DNA from: Escherichia coli
GTDB taxonomy: Bacteria; Pseudomonadota; Gammaproteobacteria; Enterobacterales; Enterobacteriaceae
NCBI RefSeq assembly: GCF_045037415.1
Contig: NZ_CP173438.1
Length of the DNA: 64,000 nt
Direction: 5' to 3' (one strand)
Shown here: in pieces, positions 3,651-26,294 of the stretch
Numbering within the stretch: the stretch's first letter is position 1
Layout: every line of letters begins with the position of its first letter
Position numbers and translations under genes: made by a program
Notes under the pieces: model-generated
The model's database searches: none
What the model was told of the DNA's origin: nothing
What the model saw: the letters and a program-made list of their open reading frames with translations, nothing else

Positions 3651-5933
3651 ATGTCCGAGCTTAATGAAAAGTTAGCCACAGCCTGGGAAGGTTTTACCAA
3701 AGGTGACTGGCAGAATGAAGTAAACGTCCGTGACTTCATTCAGAAAAACTACACTCCGTACGAGGGTGACGAGTCCTTCCTGGCTGGCGCTACTGAAGCG
3801 ACCACCACCCTGTGGGACAAAGTAATGGAAGGCGTTAAACTGGAAAACCGCACTCACGCGCCAGTTGACTTTGACACCGCTGTTGCTTCCACCATCACCT
3901 CTCACGACGCTGGTTACATCAACAAGCAGCTTGAGAAAATCGTTGGTCTGCAGACTGAAGCTCCGCTGAAACGTGCTCTTATCCCGTTCGGTGGTATCAA
4001 AATGATCGAAGGTTCCTGCAAAGCGTACAACCGCGAACTGGACCCGATGATCAAAAAAATCTTCACTGAATACCGTAAAACTCACAACCAGGGCGTGTTC
4101 GACGTTTACACTCCGGACATCCTGCGTTGCCGTAAATCCGGTGTTCTGACCGGTCTGCCAGATGCTTATGGCCGTGGTCGTATCATCGGTGACTACCGTC
4201 GCGTTGCACTGTACGGTATCGACTACCTGATGAAAGACAAACTTGCACAGTTCACCTCTCTGCAGGCTGATCTGGAAAACGGCGTAAACCTGGAACAGAC
4301 TATCCGTCTGCGCGAAGAAATCGCTGAACAGCACCGCGCTCTGGGTCAGATGAAAGAAATGGCTGCGAAATACGGCTACGACATCTCTGGTCCGGCTACT
4401 AACGCTCAGGAAGCTATCCAGTGGACTTACTTCGGCTACCTGGCTGCTGTTAAGTCTCAGAACGGTGCTGCAATGTCCTTCGGTCGTACCTCCACCTTCC
4501 TGGATGTGTACATCGAACGTGACCTGAAAGCTGGCAAGATCACCGAACAAGAAGCGCAGGAAATGGTTGACCACCTGGTCATGAAACTGCGTATGGTTCG
4601 CTTCCTGCGTACTCCGGAATACGATGAACTGTTCTCTGGCGACCCGATCTGGGCAACCGAATCTATCGGTGGTATGGGCCTCGACGGTCGTACCCTGGTT
4701 ACCAAAAACAGCTTCCGTTTCCTGAACACCCTGTACACCATGGGTCCGTCTCCGGAACCGAACATGACCATTCTGTGGTCTGAAAAACTGCCGCTGAACT
4801 TCAAGAAATTCGCCGCTAAAGTGTCCATCGACACCTCTTCTCTGCAGTATGAGAACGATGACCTGATGCGTCCGGACTTCAACAACGATGACTACGCTAT
4901 TGCTTGCTGCGTAAGCCCGATGATCGTTGGTAAACAAATGCAGTTCTTCGGTGCGCGTGCAAACCTGGCGAAAACCATGCTGTACGCAATCAACGGTGGC
5001 GTTGACGAAAAACTGAAAATGCAGGTTGGTCCGAAATCTGAGCCGATCAAAGGCGATGTCCTGAACTATGATGAAGTGATGGAGCGCATGGATCACTTCA
5101 TGGACTGGCTGGCTAAACAGTACATCACTGCACTGAACATCATCCACTACATGCACGACAAGTACAGCTACGAAGCCTCTCTGATGGCGCTGCACGACCG
5201 TGACGTTATCCGCACCATGGCGTGTGGTATCGCTGGTCTGTCCGTTGCTGCTGACTCCCTGTCTGCAATCAAATATGCGAAAGTTAAACCGATTCGTGAT
5301 GAAGACGGTCTGGCTATCGACTTCGAAATCGAAGGCGAATACCCGCAGTTTGGTAACAACGATCCGCGTGTAGATGACCTGGCTGTTGACCTGGTAGAAC
5401 GTTTCATGAAGAAAATTCAGAAACTGCACACCTACCGTGACGCTATCCCGACTCAGTCTGTTCTGACCATCACTTCTAACGTTGTGTATGGTAAGAAAAC
5501 TGGTAACACCCCAGACGGTCGTCGTGCTGGCGCGCCGTTCGGACCGGGTGCTAACCCGATGCACGGTCGTGACCAGAAAGGTGCTGTAGCGTCTCTGACT
5601 TCCGTTGCTAAACTGCCGTTTGCTTACGCTAAAGATGGTATCTCCTACACCTTCTCTATCGTTCCGAACGCACTGGGTAAAGACGACGAAGTTCGTAAGA
5701 CCAACCTGGCTGGTCTGATGGATGGTTACTTCCACCACGAAGCATCCATCGAAGGTGGTCAGCACCTGAACGTTAACGTGATGAACCGTGAAATGCTGCT
5801 CGACGCGATGGAAAACCCGGAAAAATATCCGCAGCTGACCATCCGTGTATCTGGCTACGCAGTACGTTTCAACTCGCTGACTAAAGAACAGCAGCAGGAC
5901 GTTATTACTCGTACCTTCACTCAATCTATGTAA
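3651..5933 (+). CDS. pflB: Pyruvate formate-lyase (formate C-acetyltransferase)
   Basis: 760-aa ORF; glycyl-radical region RVSGYAVRF near the C-terminus; RBS aagaaggtagg upstream. Confidence 0.95.
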
Positions 5934-19405: not shown

Positions 19406-22228
19406 ATGACGGCAGAGTACCTCAGGGACTGGCAACAACCGCGCCACGCAGTGGGGCGTGAAGGAACGGGGATCCCCGCTCCTGAATCCGCGCTTTCCTC
19501 CTGGCTGGATGCCTACCGGGCAGAGAACGAGCGCCGCCAGGAAATGGCTGATGCGGCGTTCTCAGCCACGCCGCTGGGCAACCTGATTAATAAAAGCCTG
19601 GACGCACAGGAAAAACAGGACAAAACCATCACACTGGCAGGAGACGCCAGAAAACAGGCACGTGGCGCGGTGGATGAAGCCATGGCCTCGCTGCGCCTGC
19701 TGCCGTCCTATCTGCGCGATCCGCTTATTCGCCACCTCTCCTTCCTGCGCAAAAAACAGGAAGCCGATCGCCGGAAAGGCAAAAAGAGCTGGCAGGCGGA
19801 ACGCTATGCACGCGGAACCCTGCGCAAAATATTCGAACGTCTGGATAGCACTGACGGACGCTGGCTGACACCGGGTTATCGCTCCCTTGCCGGACGCGAA
19901 CGCCTGGACGATTTGCTTTACCTGCCGCAGCTCAACAAACACCAGATACAGACGCTGGCCACCATGACGGCGGCGATGTTCAGCAGCACCTTCGAAAAAC
20001 TCTGCGATGGCTTTGGCGCGACCGATGGCGAGCTGACCATGGATGTAACCCTGAAGGCGTATCAGATGCTGGCCCGCATGGCGTTACACCTGCACGCCAT
20101 GCCTCCACATTATGACGCACTGACAACAGACAAAGACCGGAGGAACGAACCGGACACGGAGCTGCTGCCGGGCGCAATCCTTCGCCTGACCTGTGCGGAA
20201 TGGTGGAAACGCAAACTGTGGCTGTTACGTTGCGAGTGGAGAGAAGAACAACTCCGCGCCGCCTGTCTGGTTTCCAGAAAAACATCACCCTATCTGAGCC
20301 AGGACGCGTTAAGCGAGTTTCGCGCACAGCGCGAGAAAACACGCGATTTCCTGAAAAGTTTCATGCTGGAAAATGAAGACGGGTTCACGATTGATCTCGA
20401 GACAGTGTATTACGCGGGAGTAAGTAACCCGGTTCACCGTAAGGCAGAAATGATGGCCACCATGAAGGGACTGGAACTTCTGGCCGAAGCCCGTGGCGAC
20501 AAAGCGGTGTTTCTGACTGTCACCTGCCCGTCAAAATACCACGCCACAACGGAGAACGGTCATCCGAATCCCAAATGGAACGGGGCCACAATGCGCGACT
20601 CCAGCGATTACCTGGTTAACACGTTTTTTGCGGCGGTCCGCAAAAAACTGAACCGCGACGGCCTGCGCTGGTATGGCATCCGCACGGTGGAGCCTCATCA
20701 TGACGGCACCGTGCACTGGCATATGATGGTCTTTGCACATCCGGAAGAAATCGACACCATTGTGTCCCATACCCGCGATATTGCCATTCAGGAAGACCGC
20801 CACGAGCTGGGCAATGATATTACTCCGCGCTTTAAGGTGGAGTATGTCGACGGCTCAAAAGGCACGCCAACCAGCTACATCGCCACCTACATCGGAAAGA
20901 ACCTGGACAGCCGCGCCGTGGATGGCATCGACCCGAAAACGGGCAAGCCACGCGTGGACCACGAAACCGGAAAATCAATGGCCGAGAGCGTGGAGCGCGC
21001 CATCGGCTGGGCGCGCCTTCACCGGGTCCGTCAGTTCCAGTTCTTTGGCATCCCCTCCCGTCAGGTGTGGCGTGAACTGCGCCGCCTTGCCAGCCAGATG
21101 GCACGCAATCCGGAAGGCCCGCAACGGCTGAAAGATGATGCAATGGATGCGGTACTCGCTGCCGCCGATGCCGGGTGTTTTGCCACCTACATTGAAAAAC
21201 AGGGTGGCGTGCTTGTTCCACGCAAGGACTACCTGATTCGCACCGCCTACGACCTCGCAGATGAGCTGAACGATTACGGCGAACAGAGCGTACAGATTTA
21301 CGGGATCTGGTCACCACTCATCGGGGAATCCTCCCGTGTGTGCACGCATCCGGATAACTGGAAGCTGGTAAGACGTAAACCGGAAGCGGAAGACAGCGCC
21401 CGCGAAAATGGTTTTGACCTTCAGGGCGGCCCTGCCGCCCCTTGGACTCGTGGCAATAACTGTCCCCGTGTACAGGAAACGGACAACAACGGGACAGAAC
21501 AGCCGGAAGAACGGCCAGCACCGTGGCCGCAGCTCCCTGACGGCGTTGAAGTGAACGAATGGATGCGCTCACTGAAACGACACGAACGCCGGGCGCTGAT
21601 GCGTTCGCTTCGTGACAAACAGGCAAAAAACAGCAGCGATGAAATGCAGAGCTGGACACAGAGCCGCAAACAGCAGCGGCCTTTGCCTGATAACCACGAA
21701 TTACTCGCTAAAGAATGGCGGGAGTCTGCTGAATCTCTCGGCCTGCATATCGGTGAACAACAGATGCAGCACCTGTTACGGGGCGGCAGTCTGTACGTTG
21801 ACGGCAGCATCATTGCACCGCAGGGATTTGAAATTGTACGCAAACCGGATACCCGCCCGGACAGCCGAATCACGCAGCTCTGGCAGCGCCTGAGCCGTAA
21901 TCATGGCGTAAGCAGCACGGAGATCCGCCATAACCCGGTCGCCAGCTATCTGGCACAGCTGGGGGCATCAGACCCTGAAGCCGCCGCACGCCTGGCATCC
22001 ACACTTCAGCAGGGCCAGAACACCATGAAAACACCCGTTACCGTGCTTTCTGACATGCTGCGCGCCATCCGCGACGCAGAGCACGCACAGAGAATCAGTG
22101 AAACCACTGAACGCGCCAGCCGCAAAGCAGACCTGCTGCGGGGTGGCCTGACCAGTGGAAACAAAAAACAGACAGAAACGGGACTTACGAATCCCGTAAA
22201 TGAGCAAAAAACGCGCAGCGATATATGA
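19406..22228 (+). CDS. P2 gpA-type rolling-circle replication initiation endonuclease
   Basis: 940 aa; HxH metal motif in TVEPHHDGTVHWHMMVFAHPEE, typical of gpA/gene II Rep proteins; longer than P2 A as I recall it (about 760 aa). Confidence 0.8.
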   Translation: MTAEYLRDWQQPRHAVGREGTGIPAPESALSSWLDAYRAENERRQEMADAAFSATPLGNLINKSLDAQEKQDKTITLAGDARKQARGAVDEAMASLRLLPSYLRDPLIRHLSFLRKKQEADRRKGKKSWQAERYARGTLRKIFERLDSTDGRWLTPGYRSLAGRERLDDLLYLPQLNKHQIQTLATMTAAMFSSTFEKLCDGFGATDGELTMDVTLKAYQMLARMALHLHAMPPHYDALTTDKDRRNEPDTELLPGAILRLTCAEWWKRKLWLLRCEWREEQLRAACLVSRKTSPYLSQDALSEFRAQREKTRDFLKSFMLENEDGFTIDLETVYYAGVSNPVHRKAEMMATMKGLELLAEARGDKAVFLTVTCPSKYHATTENGHPNPKWNGATMRDSSDYLVNTFFAAVRKKLNRDGLRWYGIRTVEPHHDGTVHWHMMVFAHPEEIDTIVSHTRDIAIQEDRHELGNDITPRFKVEYVDGSKGTPTSYIATYIGKNLDSRAVDGIDPKTGKPRVDHETGKSMAESVERAIGWARLHRVRQFQFFGIPSRQVWRELRRLASQMARNPEGPQRLKDDAMDAVLAAADAGCFATYIEKQGGVLVPRKDYLIRTAYDLADELNDYGEQSVQIYGIWSPLIGESSRVCTHPDNWKLVRRKPEAEDSARENGFDLQGGPAAPWTRGNNCPRVQETDNNGTEQPEERPAPWPQLPDGVEVNEWMRSLKRHERRALMRSLRDKQAKNSSDEMQSWTQSRKQQRPLPDNHELLAKEWRESAESLGLHIGEQQMQHLLRGGSLYVDGSIIAPQGFEIVRKPDTRPDSRITQLWQRLSRNHGVSSTEIRHNPVASYLAQLGASDPEAAARLASTLQQGQNTMKTPVTVLSDMLRAIRDAEHAQRISETTERASRKADLLRGGLTSGNKKQTETGLTNPVNEQKTRSDI

Positions 22229-22304: not shown

Positions 22305-23264
22305 ATGAAAATTTGTATCGACGACGGCTCCACCAACATCAAGCTGGCATGGACTGAGAATGGCGAACGCCGCAACGCCATCAGCCCGAACAGCTTCAAG
22401 TCGGAATGGTCTGCGCCGTTCGGTGGCATGCAGCCCGCGAACTACATGCTTGATGGCGTGCGCTATGGTTTTGATCCGGTTAGCGATCGCTTTGTCCAGA
22501 CGACCGACACGCAATACCAGTACAGCGATGTGAATGTAATCGCCATTCATCACGCGCTGGTCAAATCAGGCATCACGCCACAGGAGGTGGATGTGGTTGT
22601 CACCCTGCCACTGAGCGAGTATTTCGACACAAACGCACAGCCGGACATGGCCAACATCAACCGCAAAAAAGCGAACGTTATGCGCCCGGTGGAATACCAG
22701 AACGGCGAAGCATTCACTATCCGTAACGTGCGGGTTATGCCTGAATCCATTCCGGCTGGCTTTAAAGCACTGGCTGACATGAGTCCGTTTGAATCCCTGC
22801 TGATTGTGGATTTAGGCGGAACCACGCTGGATGTGGCAAAGGTTCAAGGGCAACTGGCAGGTATCAGCCAGGTGTTTTGCGATCCACACGTAGGCGTTTC
22901 CCTGATGGCCGATGCCGTACTGTCGGTGATGGCCACTAACGGTATGCGCACCAGTCACCACATCGCCAATACCATTATCGAACATCGCCATGATGAAGCC
23001 TGGCTGCGCCAGCACATCCACAATGACGCGCATTACGCCAGCCTGATGGCGGTTATTCGTGAAAAGGAAGAAACACTGAAACAACGCGTGATCCGCTCGC
23101 TGGCGGTTTTTTCGGGTTACGGGCGGGTGATGGTTGTCGGTGGAGGGGCGGAGATTGTGGCACCCGCTATCCGCGAAGTCTGCGGAGTTAATGCGACTTT
23201 CATCGCGGACGGGGTGCCACAGTTTGCTCTGGTTAATGGGCTGTACGCAATGGACAAGGAGTAA
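22305..23264 (+). CDS. ParM/StbA-like actin-family partition ATPase
   Basis: MKICIDDGSTNIKLAW...ISPNSFKSEW...YSDVNVIAIHHAL...VVGGGAEI parallels recalled plasmid R1 ParM (MLVFIDDGSTNIKLQW...ISPNSFKREW...YSDVNVVAVHHAL...). Confidence 0.8.
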   Translation: MKICIDDGSTNIKLAWTENGERRNAISPNSFKSEWSAPFGGMQPANYMLDGVRYGFDPVSDRFVQTTDTQYQYSDVNVIAIHHALVKSGITPQEVDVVVTLPLSEYFDTNAQPDMANINRKKANVMRPVEYQNGEAFTIRNVRVMPESIPAGFKALADMSPFESLLIVDLGGTTLDVAKVQGQLAGISQVFCDPHVGVSLMADAVLSVMATNGMRTSHHIANTIIEHRHDEAWLRQHIHNDAHYASLMAVIREKEETLKQRVIRSLAVFSGYGRVMVVGGGAEIVAPAIREVCGVNATFIADGVPQFALVNGLYAMDKE

Positions 23265-23268
23265 ACCA

Positions 23269-23583
23269 ATGACGACACCAACCAGACGGATAAGTTTCTA
23301 TCTGAAGCCCGCCGCCGTCAAGAGTGAACAGGAGGCGTGCAATTACCTCGATAGCCTGCCAGCCTCCGAACGCAGCCGCGCGCAACGCGCGGCCTTTCTG
23401 GCTGGGCTAGCGCTCATAAAGCGCAACCCAGCATTTGCCTACTGGATGGCCGAATGGCCAGAGGACAACCTCCCCTTCAATACCGTTAGCATCAAGGAAA
23501 CATACCAGGATAATCAGCCTAGCGGAGTTGAATGCAATTTTTATAAAATAAAAAAGAATATTCAGACCTTATTCCCAGAATAA
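23269..23583 (+). CDS. ParR-like centromere-binding protein
   Basis: MTTPTRRISFYLKPAAV...LDSLPASERSRAQRAAFLAGLAL parallels recalled R1 ParR (RTIAFKLNPDV...LDSIPQGERSRLNRAALTAGLAL); directly follows the parM-like gene. Confidence 0.65.
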   Translation: MTTPTRRISFYLKPAAVKSEQEACNYLDSLPASERSRAQRAAFLAGLALIKRNPAFAYWMAEWPEDNLPFNTVSIKETYQDNQPSGVECNFYKIKKNIQTLFPE

Positions 23584-24548: not shown

Positions 24549-25046
24549 TTATTTGTTTTTCCGTAAAGGATTAGCTTTCCATCTTCTTACTAACCATTCG
24601 AATTCTTGATATGTAGTATCCGAATTAATGCTTTCTCTGATTGCTTTAATTAATGGCTCGGCAATATCATATGTCTCTACAACTGTTGTGTAAGATGTTC
24701 TTTTTATCATTTTTTCATCATAAATACCTTCACGAATACTTACAGCAACTCGCTCGTAAAAATTTAAAATATATTGAAATTTTCGACGCTCGGCCATTTC
24801 TTCATCTGTTATTATGCAACCATCACAAGGAAAAACATAAGAACGAAATGATTTGCCTGAACGATGCACTTGTTTCAGGGTATGCAATGACTCTATATAT
24901 TGCATATCTTGCCGACTCTCAAAAAGAAAGTTGGCCGTTTGAGTTTTTTTTGCGGTACGCACATTGTAGATAATGGTTCCAATGGCAACCAAAACGCCAA
25001 GCAGAACAATAGCATTGCTGATGATTTGTAGTGTTATTGGGTTCAT
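24549..25046 (-). CDS. N-terminally membrane-anchored protein (165 aa), unknown function; first gene of the AT-rich cargo operon
   Basis: MNPITLQIISNAIVLLGVLVAIGTIIYNV (one TM) followed by a ~140-aa charged soluble domain; AT-rich. Confidence 0.6.
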   Translation of the reverse strand: MNPITLQIISNAIVLLGVLVAIGTIIYNVRTAKKTQTANFLFESRQDMQYIESLHTLKQVHRSGKSFRSYVFPCDGCIITDEEMAERRKFQYILNFYERVAVSIREGIYDEKMIKRTSYTTVVETYDIAEPLIKAIRESINSDTTYQEFEWLVRRWKANPLRKNK

Positions 25047-25057
25047 CCTATTTCATC

Positions 25058-25088
25058 CATAAAAAAGGCGGGGAGCAAATCCCCGCCT
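25058..25088 (-). terminator. Intrinsic terminator / candidate attenuator directly upstream of the 165-aa gene
   Basis: Minus strand reads ggcgggg-atttgct-ccccgcc then tttttt; the T run ends about 12 nt before the ATG at 25046. Confidence 0.55.
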
Positions 25089-25107
25089 CATTAGAGGTCA
25101 ACGTAGC

Positions 25108-25143
25108 TTAGAAACCATCAAATTCATCATACATTTTTTTCAT
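25108..25143 (-). CDS. Candidate leader peptide (11 aa, MKKMYDEFDGF)
   Basis: Strong SD gaggggg 5-6 nt upstream of the ATG; stop codon 18 nt before the terminator stem. Confidence 0.35.
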   Translation of the reverse strand: MKKMYDEFDGF

Positions 25144-25195
25144 ATCAACCCCCTCATAGAAATCATAACCACGTTTTGTGGTTTTTGTGACGTAT

Positions 25196-25224
25196 AAACT
25201 ACATCAAAGGCAAGCCACGGTCAA
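25196..25224 (-). promoter_or_regulatory. Candidate sigma-70 promoter for the leader and membrane-protein operon
   Basis: Minus strand: ttgacc, 17-bp spacer, tagttt; followed by the palindrome ccacaaaacgtgg before the leader RBS. Confidence 0.3.
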
Positions 25225-25769
25225 ATATATAGGCATGCTTACCTGCACAAAAGTGCACAAATTTGCACAATTTTTTTGAACGACTTTTTACCCTTCCGGC
25301 CCGCATGGCGGCTGGATCCGTCAAGGATCCGTGCGTGCACAAAAAAACGCGCTTTTTCTGCGCGCAGGTGACGGGGGAACAGCCCGCGTTTCAGGGGGTA
25401 AATAGCATTCCCTGAACGATGTCGCAGAGACACAACAGAATGGCCATATTTCTCACGCTGAGCATGAAAAAGGCGTGAGGGCTTTTGATTTGATGGGGTG
25501 AAAGGTAAGGCCGTCAAAATCGCACTGAGGCAGCGAGAACATGCAGTCAACGCGGTGGAATTGCGTAAGAGTCTGACCGTCGATGGTGGCGATAAACTGG
25601 AAGGCGTCGTGAAATTATCTGATTGATACAGGAGCTGGAGAGCCGGGGCATAAATTTTTTATGCCCCGGCGAAGCAGCAGACAAGCGAAGCGCGTCAGCG
25701 ATACGGCACCTTGCCGACCATACTTCATAAGTGCAAAATACGAGCAAAGAAATCAATGGAGGCTGTCTT

Positions 25770-26294
25770 ATGGTCATTAATTACAAGCAGTTAAGAGAAA
25801 AACGGGAGCAGGTAAAGGAGAGCTTTCGCCGCAATGAAGATCTGACCCCGCTTGTACGCCTTGCCCAGGGCATTGTTGATGCTTATGAAATCTCGCTGGA
25901 GCTGCCATCACAGACCTGGACAGATAGCGACGGTAATCGCCAGCATTACGTTTCATGCGGACTGGAAGCAGCCGAAGGATTTCGCAGAATGCCTTTATCC
26001 CAGATCCCTGCCGCTACCCCCAAAGCACGGGGCAGCAATGATGAGCGAAAACTGACTTTTAGTATTGAAACGGTGGTTGACGACACACCTGGCGAAGTCG
26101 CGTTCGTGCACACTCCTGTTTCGATCGCAATGTATAACGATGAAATACAGGTTCGCGTTAATAATAATATCGTGCCACTTAAAGAAGGTAATTCACCCTA
26201 CACCACCGTTTGTGAAGCCATTCAATATTACGTTCTCTCTGAAATTGATAATCTCAAGCCTGACGGCACCCAGAAAATGGTTCAACTCTGGTAA
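25770..26294 (+). CDS. Hypothetical protein (174 aa), convergent on the portal gene
   Basis: ATG 25770 with RBS ggagg; MVINYKQLREKREQVKESFRRNEDLTPLVRLAQGIVDAYE...; no motif recognised. Confidence 0.45.
   Translation: MVINYKQLREKREQVKESFRRNEDLTPLVRLAQGIVDAYEISLELPSQTWTDSDGNRQHYVSCGLEAAEGFRRMPLSQIPAATPKARGSNDERKLTFSIETVVDDTPGEVAFVHTPVSIAMYNDEIQVRVNNNIVPLKEGNSPYTTVCEAIQYYVLSEIDNLKPDGTQKMVQLW

Follow-up and report, generated by a model that had tools for sequence, protein, structure and literature searches.

In toxin–antitoxin systems of the ToxIN type (type III), a single promoter drives the antitoxin first, a Rho-independent terminator sets the antitoxin:toxin ratio, and phages escape by means of antitoxin mimics. 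In type II systems, a small and more highly expressed partner lies upstream of the effector, and Dmd of phage T4 is a phage antitoxin mimic acting against RnlA or LsoA. Leaders of the arrest-peptide type (erm, tnaC, and speFL) typically have a conserved peptide sequence, and phage morons are said by Hendrix and colleagues to be promoter–gene–terminator cassettes. Here, we describe a locus to be compared with these systems. It lies on the minus strand of a 64,000-nt stretch of Escherichia coli DNA (contig NZ_CP173438.1 of assembly GCF_045037415.1; hereafter the window), where a micro open reading frame (micro-ORF) encoding MKKMYDEFDGF and an intrinsic terminator precede the gene of a membrane protein of the DUF4760 family. 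In the literature library searched for DEFDGF, for DUF4760, for EP-domain homologues in bacteria, and for micropeptides of phages, no earlier description was found.

The locus resembles ToxIN in its one promoter, the small unit in first position, the intervening terminator, and the phage or plasmid location, and the effect on the ratio would be analogous. It differs in that the first unit is a translated 11-codon ORF with coding-type conservation and not a set of tandem RNA repeats, none of which is present in the leader sequence. The downstream gene is predicted to encode a membrane-anchored helical DUF4760 protein and not an endoribonuclease. As in type II systems, the small putative partner comes first and the presumed effector after it, and the solo copies in lytic phages would parallel Dmd. 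The putative partner here, however, has 8–22 aa, is without a DNA-binding domain for autoregulation, and does not dock in co-folding. The trp, his, pyrBI, and erm/vmlR leaders also place a short ORF led by a Shine–Dalgarno sequence (SD) before an intrinsic terminator and a structural gene that needs read-through. In contrast to these leaders, no anti-terminator, no regulatory codon, and no fixed ORF–hairpin geometry was found here, and conservation extends to the peptide as a product, including at loci where the terminator or the downstream gene is missing. The likeness to morons lies in a ~170-bp cassette with its own promoter and terminator, placed between a resident terminator and the next plasmid sequence, but with 11 codons it encodes far less than the morons described so far.

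The elements of the module are as follows.

25224–25196, minus strand: putative sigma-70 promoter, with the −35 element TTGACC at 25224–25219, a 17-nt spacer, and the −10 element TAGTTT at 25201–25196
25183–25167, minus strand: inverted repeat AACCAC-AAAAC-GTGGTT, just past the predicted transcription start
25155–25149, minus strand: SD GAGGGGG, 5 nt before the ATG of the micro-ORF
25143 (ATG) to 25108 (TAA), minus strand: micro-ORF MKKMYDEFDGF, 11 codons plus stop, with the core DE[FY]D[GW]F-stop in Enterobacterales
25107–25090, minus strand: 18-nt spacer containing UUGACCUCU, able to pair with the SD region of the micro-ORF in the full transcript
25089–25061, minus strand: intrinsic terminator with a 10-bp stem GAGGCGGGGA/TCCCCGCCTT, a 5-nt loop TTTGC, and a T6 run
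25046 (ATG) to 24549, minus strand: DUF4760 protein, 165 aa, the conserved partner gene of the micro-ORF

An earlier note on this DNA had placed the promoter elements, a palindrome, the SD, the mini-ORF, the 18-nt gap, and the hairpin on the minus strand, and all of them are located there. Relatives are cited below by our own locus labels (L002 and so on).

Coding conservation of the micro-ORF and its linkage to DUF4760

No in-frame start is present upstream of the ATG at 25143. Diverged relatives keep the peptide: the plasmid L002 encodes MKKRYDEFDGF with two synonymous changes, and Citrobacter phage Shae_phiSM (L004) encodes MKKVFDEFDGF. In a codon-degenerate scan of viral contigs, DEFDGF-stop was found at at least 120 loci versus 2 for the scrambled FDGDEF-stop of equal degeneracy, and among the matches listed, nearly all are the ends of 8–21-codon ORFs. 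It should be noted that the scan pattern itself fixes the peptide; the synonymous diversity of the viral matches is therefore circular as an argument for coding, and this weakens the case drawn from them. For an unbiased codon test, loci were fetched through DUF4760 protein similarity alone. In 10 enterobacterial loci thus obtained, variation within the six core codons affects 5/6 third positions but only 1/6 first positions and 1/6 second positions. All three stop codons are in use in this set, and the flanks are unalignable. A GGAGG-like SD is found at the same position in nearly all 23 DUF4760-linked micro-ORFs listed, being weaker in L002, L078, and L132. Translation of the mini-ORF, as the earlier note had supposed, is very likely, and the reading of the micro-ORF as a conserved coding gene under selection is well supported by these comparisons.

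The same evidence bears on the reading that the conserved element is an RNA, either a small RNA or a structured leader, with an incidental ORF. The discrete unit of ~129 nt with a 5′ hairpin and a terminator fits such a reading, as does the z score of the whole-leader fold (−2.4). However, Rfam at a permissive E-value gave only SorX, with 19.3 bits against a gathering threshold of 46.6 and mainly over the terminator hairpin, and the sequence outside the ORF and the terminator is unconserved. The third-position variation, the three stop codons, and the strong SD in nearly all members also stand against it, and we regard an RNA element as highly improbable.

Two variant loci should be mentioned. 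L003 was considered as an independent stand-alone leader but was rejected, since it is a decaying remnant in which the ATG is changed to ATA, 1 nt is deleted, the hairpin is degraded, and the start of DUF4760 is deleted. In L133 (Enterobacter/Franconibacter pulveris), a stop-loss micro-ORF, MKKAFDEFDGFYIMK*, lies upstream of the DUF4760 gene at 2486. The Phe residue is no longer C-terminal in this variant, which is a natural test of the importance of the free carboxy-terminus.

The 165-aa protein was assigned to PF15956/DUF4760 with the Pfam hidden Markov model (E 2.1e-34; residues 12–156 versus 2–141 of the 141 model positions), a family of 2,027 clusters at 50% identity. In Enterobacterales, the micro-ORF before DUF4760 has an acidic–aromatic C-terminus (DEFDGF, DEYDGF, or DEYDWF). 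The micro-ORFs before DUF4760 in Halomonadaceae end with ..DENDGY or ..DENDGL. MKGLNEGWDGF is found in Pasteurellaceae, where its stop overlaps the DUF4760 ATG as TAATG, MNHYFSDTWDD in Nitrotoga, and MSIRDEWEDR in Marinomonas. All six metagenomic relatives sampled, at ~25–35% identity, have one as well (MKKDAWDE, MKFKDSWEDR, MFREIDEGF, MGHNKYLDGFDW, MNLFSTNEHLKDGYPGW, and MRDTDGGL). A uniform strict rule finds a micro-ORF before 17/25 DUF4760 genes but before 0/101 of the other genes of these loci (Fisher p ~2e-15). The remaining 8/25 DUF4760 genes each have a short acidic ORF that the rule only just rejects. More than 20 diverged loci share the layout. That a micro-ORF precedes every intact DUF4760 gene examined is well supported.

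The terminator is missing in the Pasteurellaceae, Nitrotoga, and Marinomonas loci and in 3/6 metagenomic loci, while the micro-ORF is kept. In distant members, the micro-ORF abuts or overlaps DUF4760, in some cases as TAATG or TAAGTG. The motif shifts with the DUF4760 clade (DEFDGF, DEYDWF, DENDGY, EGWDGF, DEWEDR, and DAWDE), and the C-terminal aromatic residue is lost in some clades (DEWEDR, DAWDE, and DTWDD). Such divergence is expected of a co-evolving pair and less so of a peptide whose target is universal, for example the ribosome or the partners of SSB. This linkage suggests that the peptide is probably the cognate partner of DUF4760, a partnership favored by the adjacency down to ~25% identity, by the clade-matched motif, and by the combination of a strong SD, the first position, and the terminator.

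Terminator, promoter, and read-through

The hairpin occupies 25089–25065, and the T-run ends at 25061. Its folding energy is −19.4 kcal/mol (z = −3.8), none of 200 shuffled sequences folds as well, and it is the top-ranked call of the region in the terminator scan. In each of the 23 enterobacterial and Halomonadaceae members checked, a hairpin (−11 to −19 kcal/mol) with a T-run lies between the micro-ORF and DUF4760. Different lineages have unrelated stems at this position, for example L021, L137, and the Halomonadaceae loci, and compensatory changes from G-C to A-U occur within lineages (L004 and L078). The earlier note had called this hairpin a canonical terminator, a view borne out by the folding score and by its conservation with unrelated stems. 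The same note had put the end of the T-run about 12 nt before the start codon; the arrangement is as described, and the distance is corrected to 14 nt (25061 to the ATG at 25046). Since a gap of 14 nt leaves no space for a promoter, read-through is required for DUF4760, in agreement with the note. That the hairpin is a genuine intrinsic terminator and that DUF4760 expression needs read-through are both well supported.

Whether this read-through is governed by the leader should be considered next to these results. In a conditional leader-peptide attenuator, translation of the micro-ORF or stalling on it would govern the terminator, and DUF4760 would be induced under some condition. The order of promoter, SD, short ORF, terminator, and gene with no internal promoter agrees with such a device, as does the presence of the terminator in all 23 of the close and intermediate relatives. 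Arrest peptides, too, typically have a conserved sequence, and the conservation seen here is compatible with stalling. However, no structure that stalling could switch appears in the folds: no anti-terminator or alternative hairpin overlaps the ORF, whose region is A/U-rich and unstructured. In the search for an anti-terminator proposed in the earlier note, both the minimum free energy (MFE) and centroid folds of the 153-nt leader retain the terminator, and the RNAalifold consensus of 19 relatives contains the terminator only, with no anti-terminator. MKKMYDEFDGF has no regulatory codon run. The stop codon of the micro-ORF lies 18 nt before the stem, which is outside the footprint of a terminating ribosome, and this distance varies over ~14–48 nt among relatives. 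Distant DUF4760 genes keep the micro-ORF without the terminator, and the plasmid cassette described below has no evident regulated gene downstream. The suggestion of a sensing attenuator in the earlier note is therefore not supported for this leader, and we consider a conditional attenuator to be unlikely. The conserved peptide, which also occurs alone in unrelated phages and plasmids, is thus a gene product and not just a device for positioning the ribosome. The presence of the terminator in all folds and the unfixed stop-to-stem distance argue for a fixed rather than a sensing terminator; that it sets a fixed peptide:protein ratio is moderately supported, the effect on the ratio being drawn from this architecture.

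The sole alternative pairing in the leader fold is that of the SD region with the post-ORF spacer. This pairing, GGGGGUUGAU : GUUGACCUCU, was considered as a regulatory switch and was rejected; it is present in the MFE fold but outside the consensus fold. It is significant in a close subgroup only, and distant members are without it, which makes its function doubtful.

The hairpin was also considered as part of a cos site, since GAGGCGGGGA resembles the P2 cos end. This idea was rejected because the hairpin sits in variable cargo past the backbone end at 25244 (see below) and because DUF4760 genes outside P2 contexts have equivalent hairpins before them. The hairpin loop and 3′ arm carry an insertion of IS421 (IS4 family) in several E. 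coli strains, at ~25071–25083 of the window (L001, E. coli MSI001, at ~1718–2830; L091, L103, and H105/H106). The promoter and the micro-ORF are thereby parted from DUF4760. This could mean that the hairpin attracts insertions or that the uncoupling of both genes is tolerated or selected. H41, taken at one point for a natural module boundary within the hairpin, was rejected as such, being an IS421 insertion.

The −10 element TAGTTT matches the consensus at 3/6 positions, and the promoter is below the threshold of the consensus scan and hence was not listed by it. The arrangement TTGAC[CTA]-17-TA[GA][TC]TT is kept in L002, L043, L075, L107, and L125. The predicted start at ~25189 would give a terminated transcript of ~129 nt. 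The pairing of the inverted repeat is kept among relatives with different sequences (CCACA/TGTGG in L002, TTCAC/GTGAA in L075 and L107, and CACC/GGTG in L018). The earlier note had taken this palindrome for operator-like. The repeat itself is present and could be an operator, but it may instead form a 5′ stem-loop of the short transcript.

Palindromes of the form ATTACC-N4-6-GGTAAT recur near DEFDGF micro-ORFs of different families. They lie in the promoter spacer of P88-like relatives (L018, L043, L075, L092, L107, and L125) and 3′ of the terminator in lambdoid phages; the promoter in the window has none. These palindromes could be a shared operator.

Solo micro-ORFs and the action of the peptide

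A unit of promoter, micro-ORF, and terminator (~170 bp) is present at TTTTTT|ATGG in 6/56 related ~48-kb E. coli plasmids. In the other related plasmids, the T-run of the resident terminator and ATGG are contiguous. The micro-ORF cassette is autonomous and is a moron in the sense that it is present or absent between collinear genomes. The plasmid cassette (L002 3990–4165 compared with L173 690–712) adjoins a ParA locus, and the plasmids are non-mobilizable. A TTTTTTATGG junction after the terminator is common to the plasmid cassette and the prophage module, and the sharing of this junction suggests recombination at terminator T-runs.

Both T4-like and lambdoid phages have solo DEFDGF micro-ORFs, which lie upstream of unrelated genes. 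In T4-like phages of the JS98/VR5 type, MKDEHPDF, MNDEYEKV, and MNDEFDGF are encoded in tandem between a-gt.3 and a-gt.2, all three unannotated. This array (1155–1255 of L128, phage JS98; also in L009, L015, and L033–L037) has no hairpin after any of the three, and it might represent several variants of one acidic–aromatic micro-peptide. In phages of the lambdoid/Stx type, unannotated MHDEFDGF and a terminator lie directly 5′ of the small terminase gene. Phage TL-2011b (L129 1206–1328) has MHDEFDVF* in this layout, which recurs in L010, L013, L019, and ~40 further contigs of lambdoid size. The lambdoid micro-ORF is preceded by a GTGACATGTCAC palindrome, and a terminator composed of GCCGCCAACTATGGCGGC and a T-run starts 5 nt past the stop and is followed by repeated ATTACC..GGTAA motifs. 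Other solo micro-ORFs precede gp47-like, primase-like, and unknown genes. Longer acidic frames containing EDWGV[YF] and ending with DENDGY* or DEFDGF*, for example ..NADEDWGVYEEDRGLLKIDENDGY*, are located right before small-terminase-like genes (L163 at ~170–191, L164 at ~3965–3985, L007, and L065). The micro-peptides might have larger relatives, or their precursors, in these frames.

These solo copies bear on a rival explanation in which the micro-ORF is an independent moron micro-gene, the peptide targets a host or phage protein unrelated to DUF4760, and the adjacency reflects co-transfer. An example would be a mimic of an acidic, Phe-ending tail such as that of T7 gp2.5 or the C-terminal tip of SSB, and the composition of the peptide would resemble that of known acidic C-terminal tails. 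The movement of the cassette alone into plasmids with its own promoter and terminator, and the common solo copies in T4-like and lambdoid phages without DUF4760, are in line with this explanation. However, the adjacency persists down to ~25% identity in several bacterial orders with 0/101 controls, and a motif that varies by clade and loses its aromatic end in some clades misfits a conserved host pocket such as the SSB-tip sites. We therefore judge an independent target to be rather unlikely.

The model of the DUF4760 protein has an N-terminal transmembrane helix and a cytoplasmic all-helical domain and resembles the EP domains of plant EDS1/PAD4. In the AlphaFold2 prediction for the monomer, with the peptide tethered via 30 Gly residues and a paired alignment, the DUF4760 domain has a predicted local distance difference test score (pLDDT) of 94–98. 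The gene following DUF4760 is given below.

24509–23667, minus strand: 280-aa multi-pass membrane protein with a GTG start and its own SD (phrog_12528, function unknown)

The 280-aa protein has a weak match to Csx27 in PADLOC (E 1.1e-5, residues 6–244); Csx27 is a membrane protein associated with type VI-B CRISPR. The 280-aa gene accompanies the module in its E. coli variant alone, and all other DUF4760 loci are without it. The two genes adjoin as in the membrane-protein operon of the earlier note, but they are not a conserved unit, the 280-aa gene being lineage-specific.

We propose the following mode of action. A single promoter would drive a translated micro-gene that ends at an efficient intrinsic terminator, and only read-through transcripts would reach DUF4760 and, in the E. 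coli lineage, the 280-aa gene. The terminator would thus act as a fixed ratio-setter giving many short peptide mRNAs and few DUF4760 mRNAs. Most likely, the peptide would be a labile, antitoxin-like inhibitor present in excess over the membrane-anchored DUF4760. When the supply of the peptide is lost, for example by phage-induced shut-off of host transcription, DUF4760 would be freed. The antidote would be supplied by those phages and plasmids that have the peptide gene without DUF4760. The ratio-setting role, the action in trans on DUF4760, the inhibitory direction, and the defense role are inferred, and the action as an antidote in particular is suggested by the linkage only.

Several observations weigh against this model. 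The tethered peptide is undocked on both the DUF4760 monomer (pLDDT ~41) and the dimer (~30), a result that leaves direct binding unsupported and also suits the independent micro-gene; since the paired alignment is shallow and the protein sits in a membrane, we do not read it as evidence that binding is absent. DUF4760 has no match to a known defense or toxin family (0 hits in PADLOC-DB v2 and 0 hits in NCBIfam), and PHROG classes it as function unknown. Many solo peptides lie just 5′ of a co-oriented gene, often with a hairpin, which is found with a T-run after the ORF in ~30/69 distinct viral contexts. The lambdoid solo hairpin, starting 5 nt past the stop, is inside the ribosome footprint, as an attenuator would have it. 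Since the solo copies also fit a portable cis-regulatory leader or another target, confidence in the partnership is only moderate. The model as a whole, in which a self-promoted module with a fixed ratio-setting terminator and a peptide antidote of DUF4760 occupies a defense hotspot, seems to us about as likely as not. A wider proposal is that the genes of DEFDGF-type peptides of 8–11 residues form a class that is widespread in phages and prophages but unannotated, that in prophages the peptides are labile antidotes of DUF4760 as a membrane-anchored, EP-like abortive-infection effector, and that the solo copies of phages and phage-plasmids, sometimes in tandem variant arrays, serve counter-defense. 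We put this forward only tentatively.

Prophage setting and biological meaning

The window contains a P88-like (Xuanwuvirus, P2-related) prophage of E. coli. The surrounding features are as follows.

29106–27355, minus strand: large terminase
27355–26309, minus strand: portal gene
26320–26300, minus strand: portal-operon terminator (terminator scan)
25365–25347, minus strand: upstream intrinsic terminator, GCGCGCAGAAAAAGCGCGT + T7 (terminator scan), inside the backbone segment 25244–25698
22305–23264, plus strand: ParM, followed by a ParR-like gene
19406–22228, plus strand: replication endonuclease

In BLAST comparisons with phage genomes, the conserved P88-like backbone spans 25698–25244 and ends there. 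From 25243 downward, the DNA is variable cargo that differs among phages otherwise ~93% identical, and the micro-ORF/DUF4760 module is inside it. The module is located between the replication and portal genes, adjoining the cos-side backbone, a position described for P2-like phages as an antiviral hotspot next to cos (Rousset et al. 2022, PMC9122126). The position thus matches, but this cargo matches no PADLOC model, and no mention of a micro-ORF and DUF4760 cargo was found in the main text of PMC9122126. The identical module is present in 288/5,426 complete E. coli genomes, and the micro-ORF is without annotation in all ~300 RefSeq E. coli genomes carrying it. The terminator at 25365–25347, also found in L003, L004, and L005, insulates the module from portal-side transcription. 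Because this terminator and the portal-operon terminator both lie upstream on the minus strand, a promoter within the module is needed.

TTGTGCA occurs as three exact direct repeats with 10-bp phasing (25270–25264, 25260–25254, and 25250–25244) at the last bases of the P88-like backbone, right before the variable cargo. They are kept in L003, L004, L005, L043, L107, L125, and L143 and could be a protein-binding site at the cos-side boundary of the hotspot. An annotated plasmid segregation pair of the ParM/ParR type (22305–23583, plus strand) is carried by this integrated P2-related prophage. The pair is conserved in P88, Shae_phiSM, and relatives, its matches to the NCBIfam ParM models being weak, and its presence may point to a partition function or to a stage of plasmid-like life. 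A 187-aa ORF (25731–26294, plus strand; phrog_5091, function unknown) lies on the opposite strand in the interval between the portal gene and the cos-side backbone. It varies among P88-like phages, being missing from P88 and replaced in L003, and thus marks a second small cargo slot.

The narrow finding, a real terminator with read-through and no sign of sensing, is fairly ordinary, but the micro-peptide family that it exposed is not. A gene of 27–36 nt, invisible to annotation pipelines, appears to be under purifying selection in T4-like, lambdoid/Stx, and P2-like phages and in phage-plasmids. Should the micro-ORF prove to be a functional partner of DUF4760, a family of ~2,000 clusters would gain an overlooked second component, and every DUF4760 annotation would miss a gene. 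The terminator would then be a protein-coding analogue of the ratio-setting layout of ToxIN. The EP-like fold of the DUF4760 model hints that a domain hitherto discussed in plant immunity alone has a relative in bacteria. If the antidote or counter-defense reading is true, few functional genes known from phage–host conflict would be as small as these micro-ORFs.

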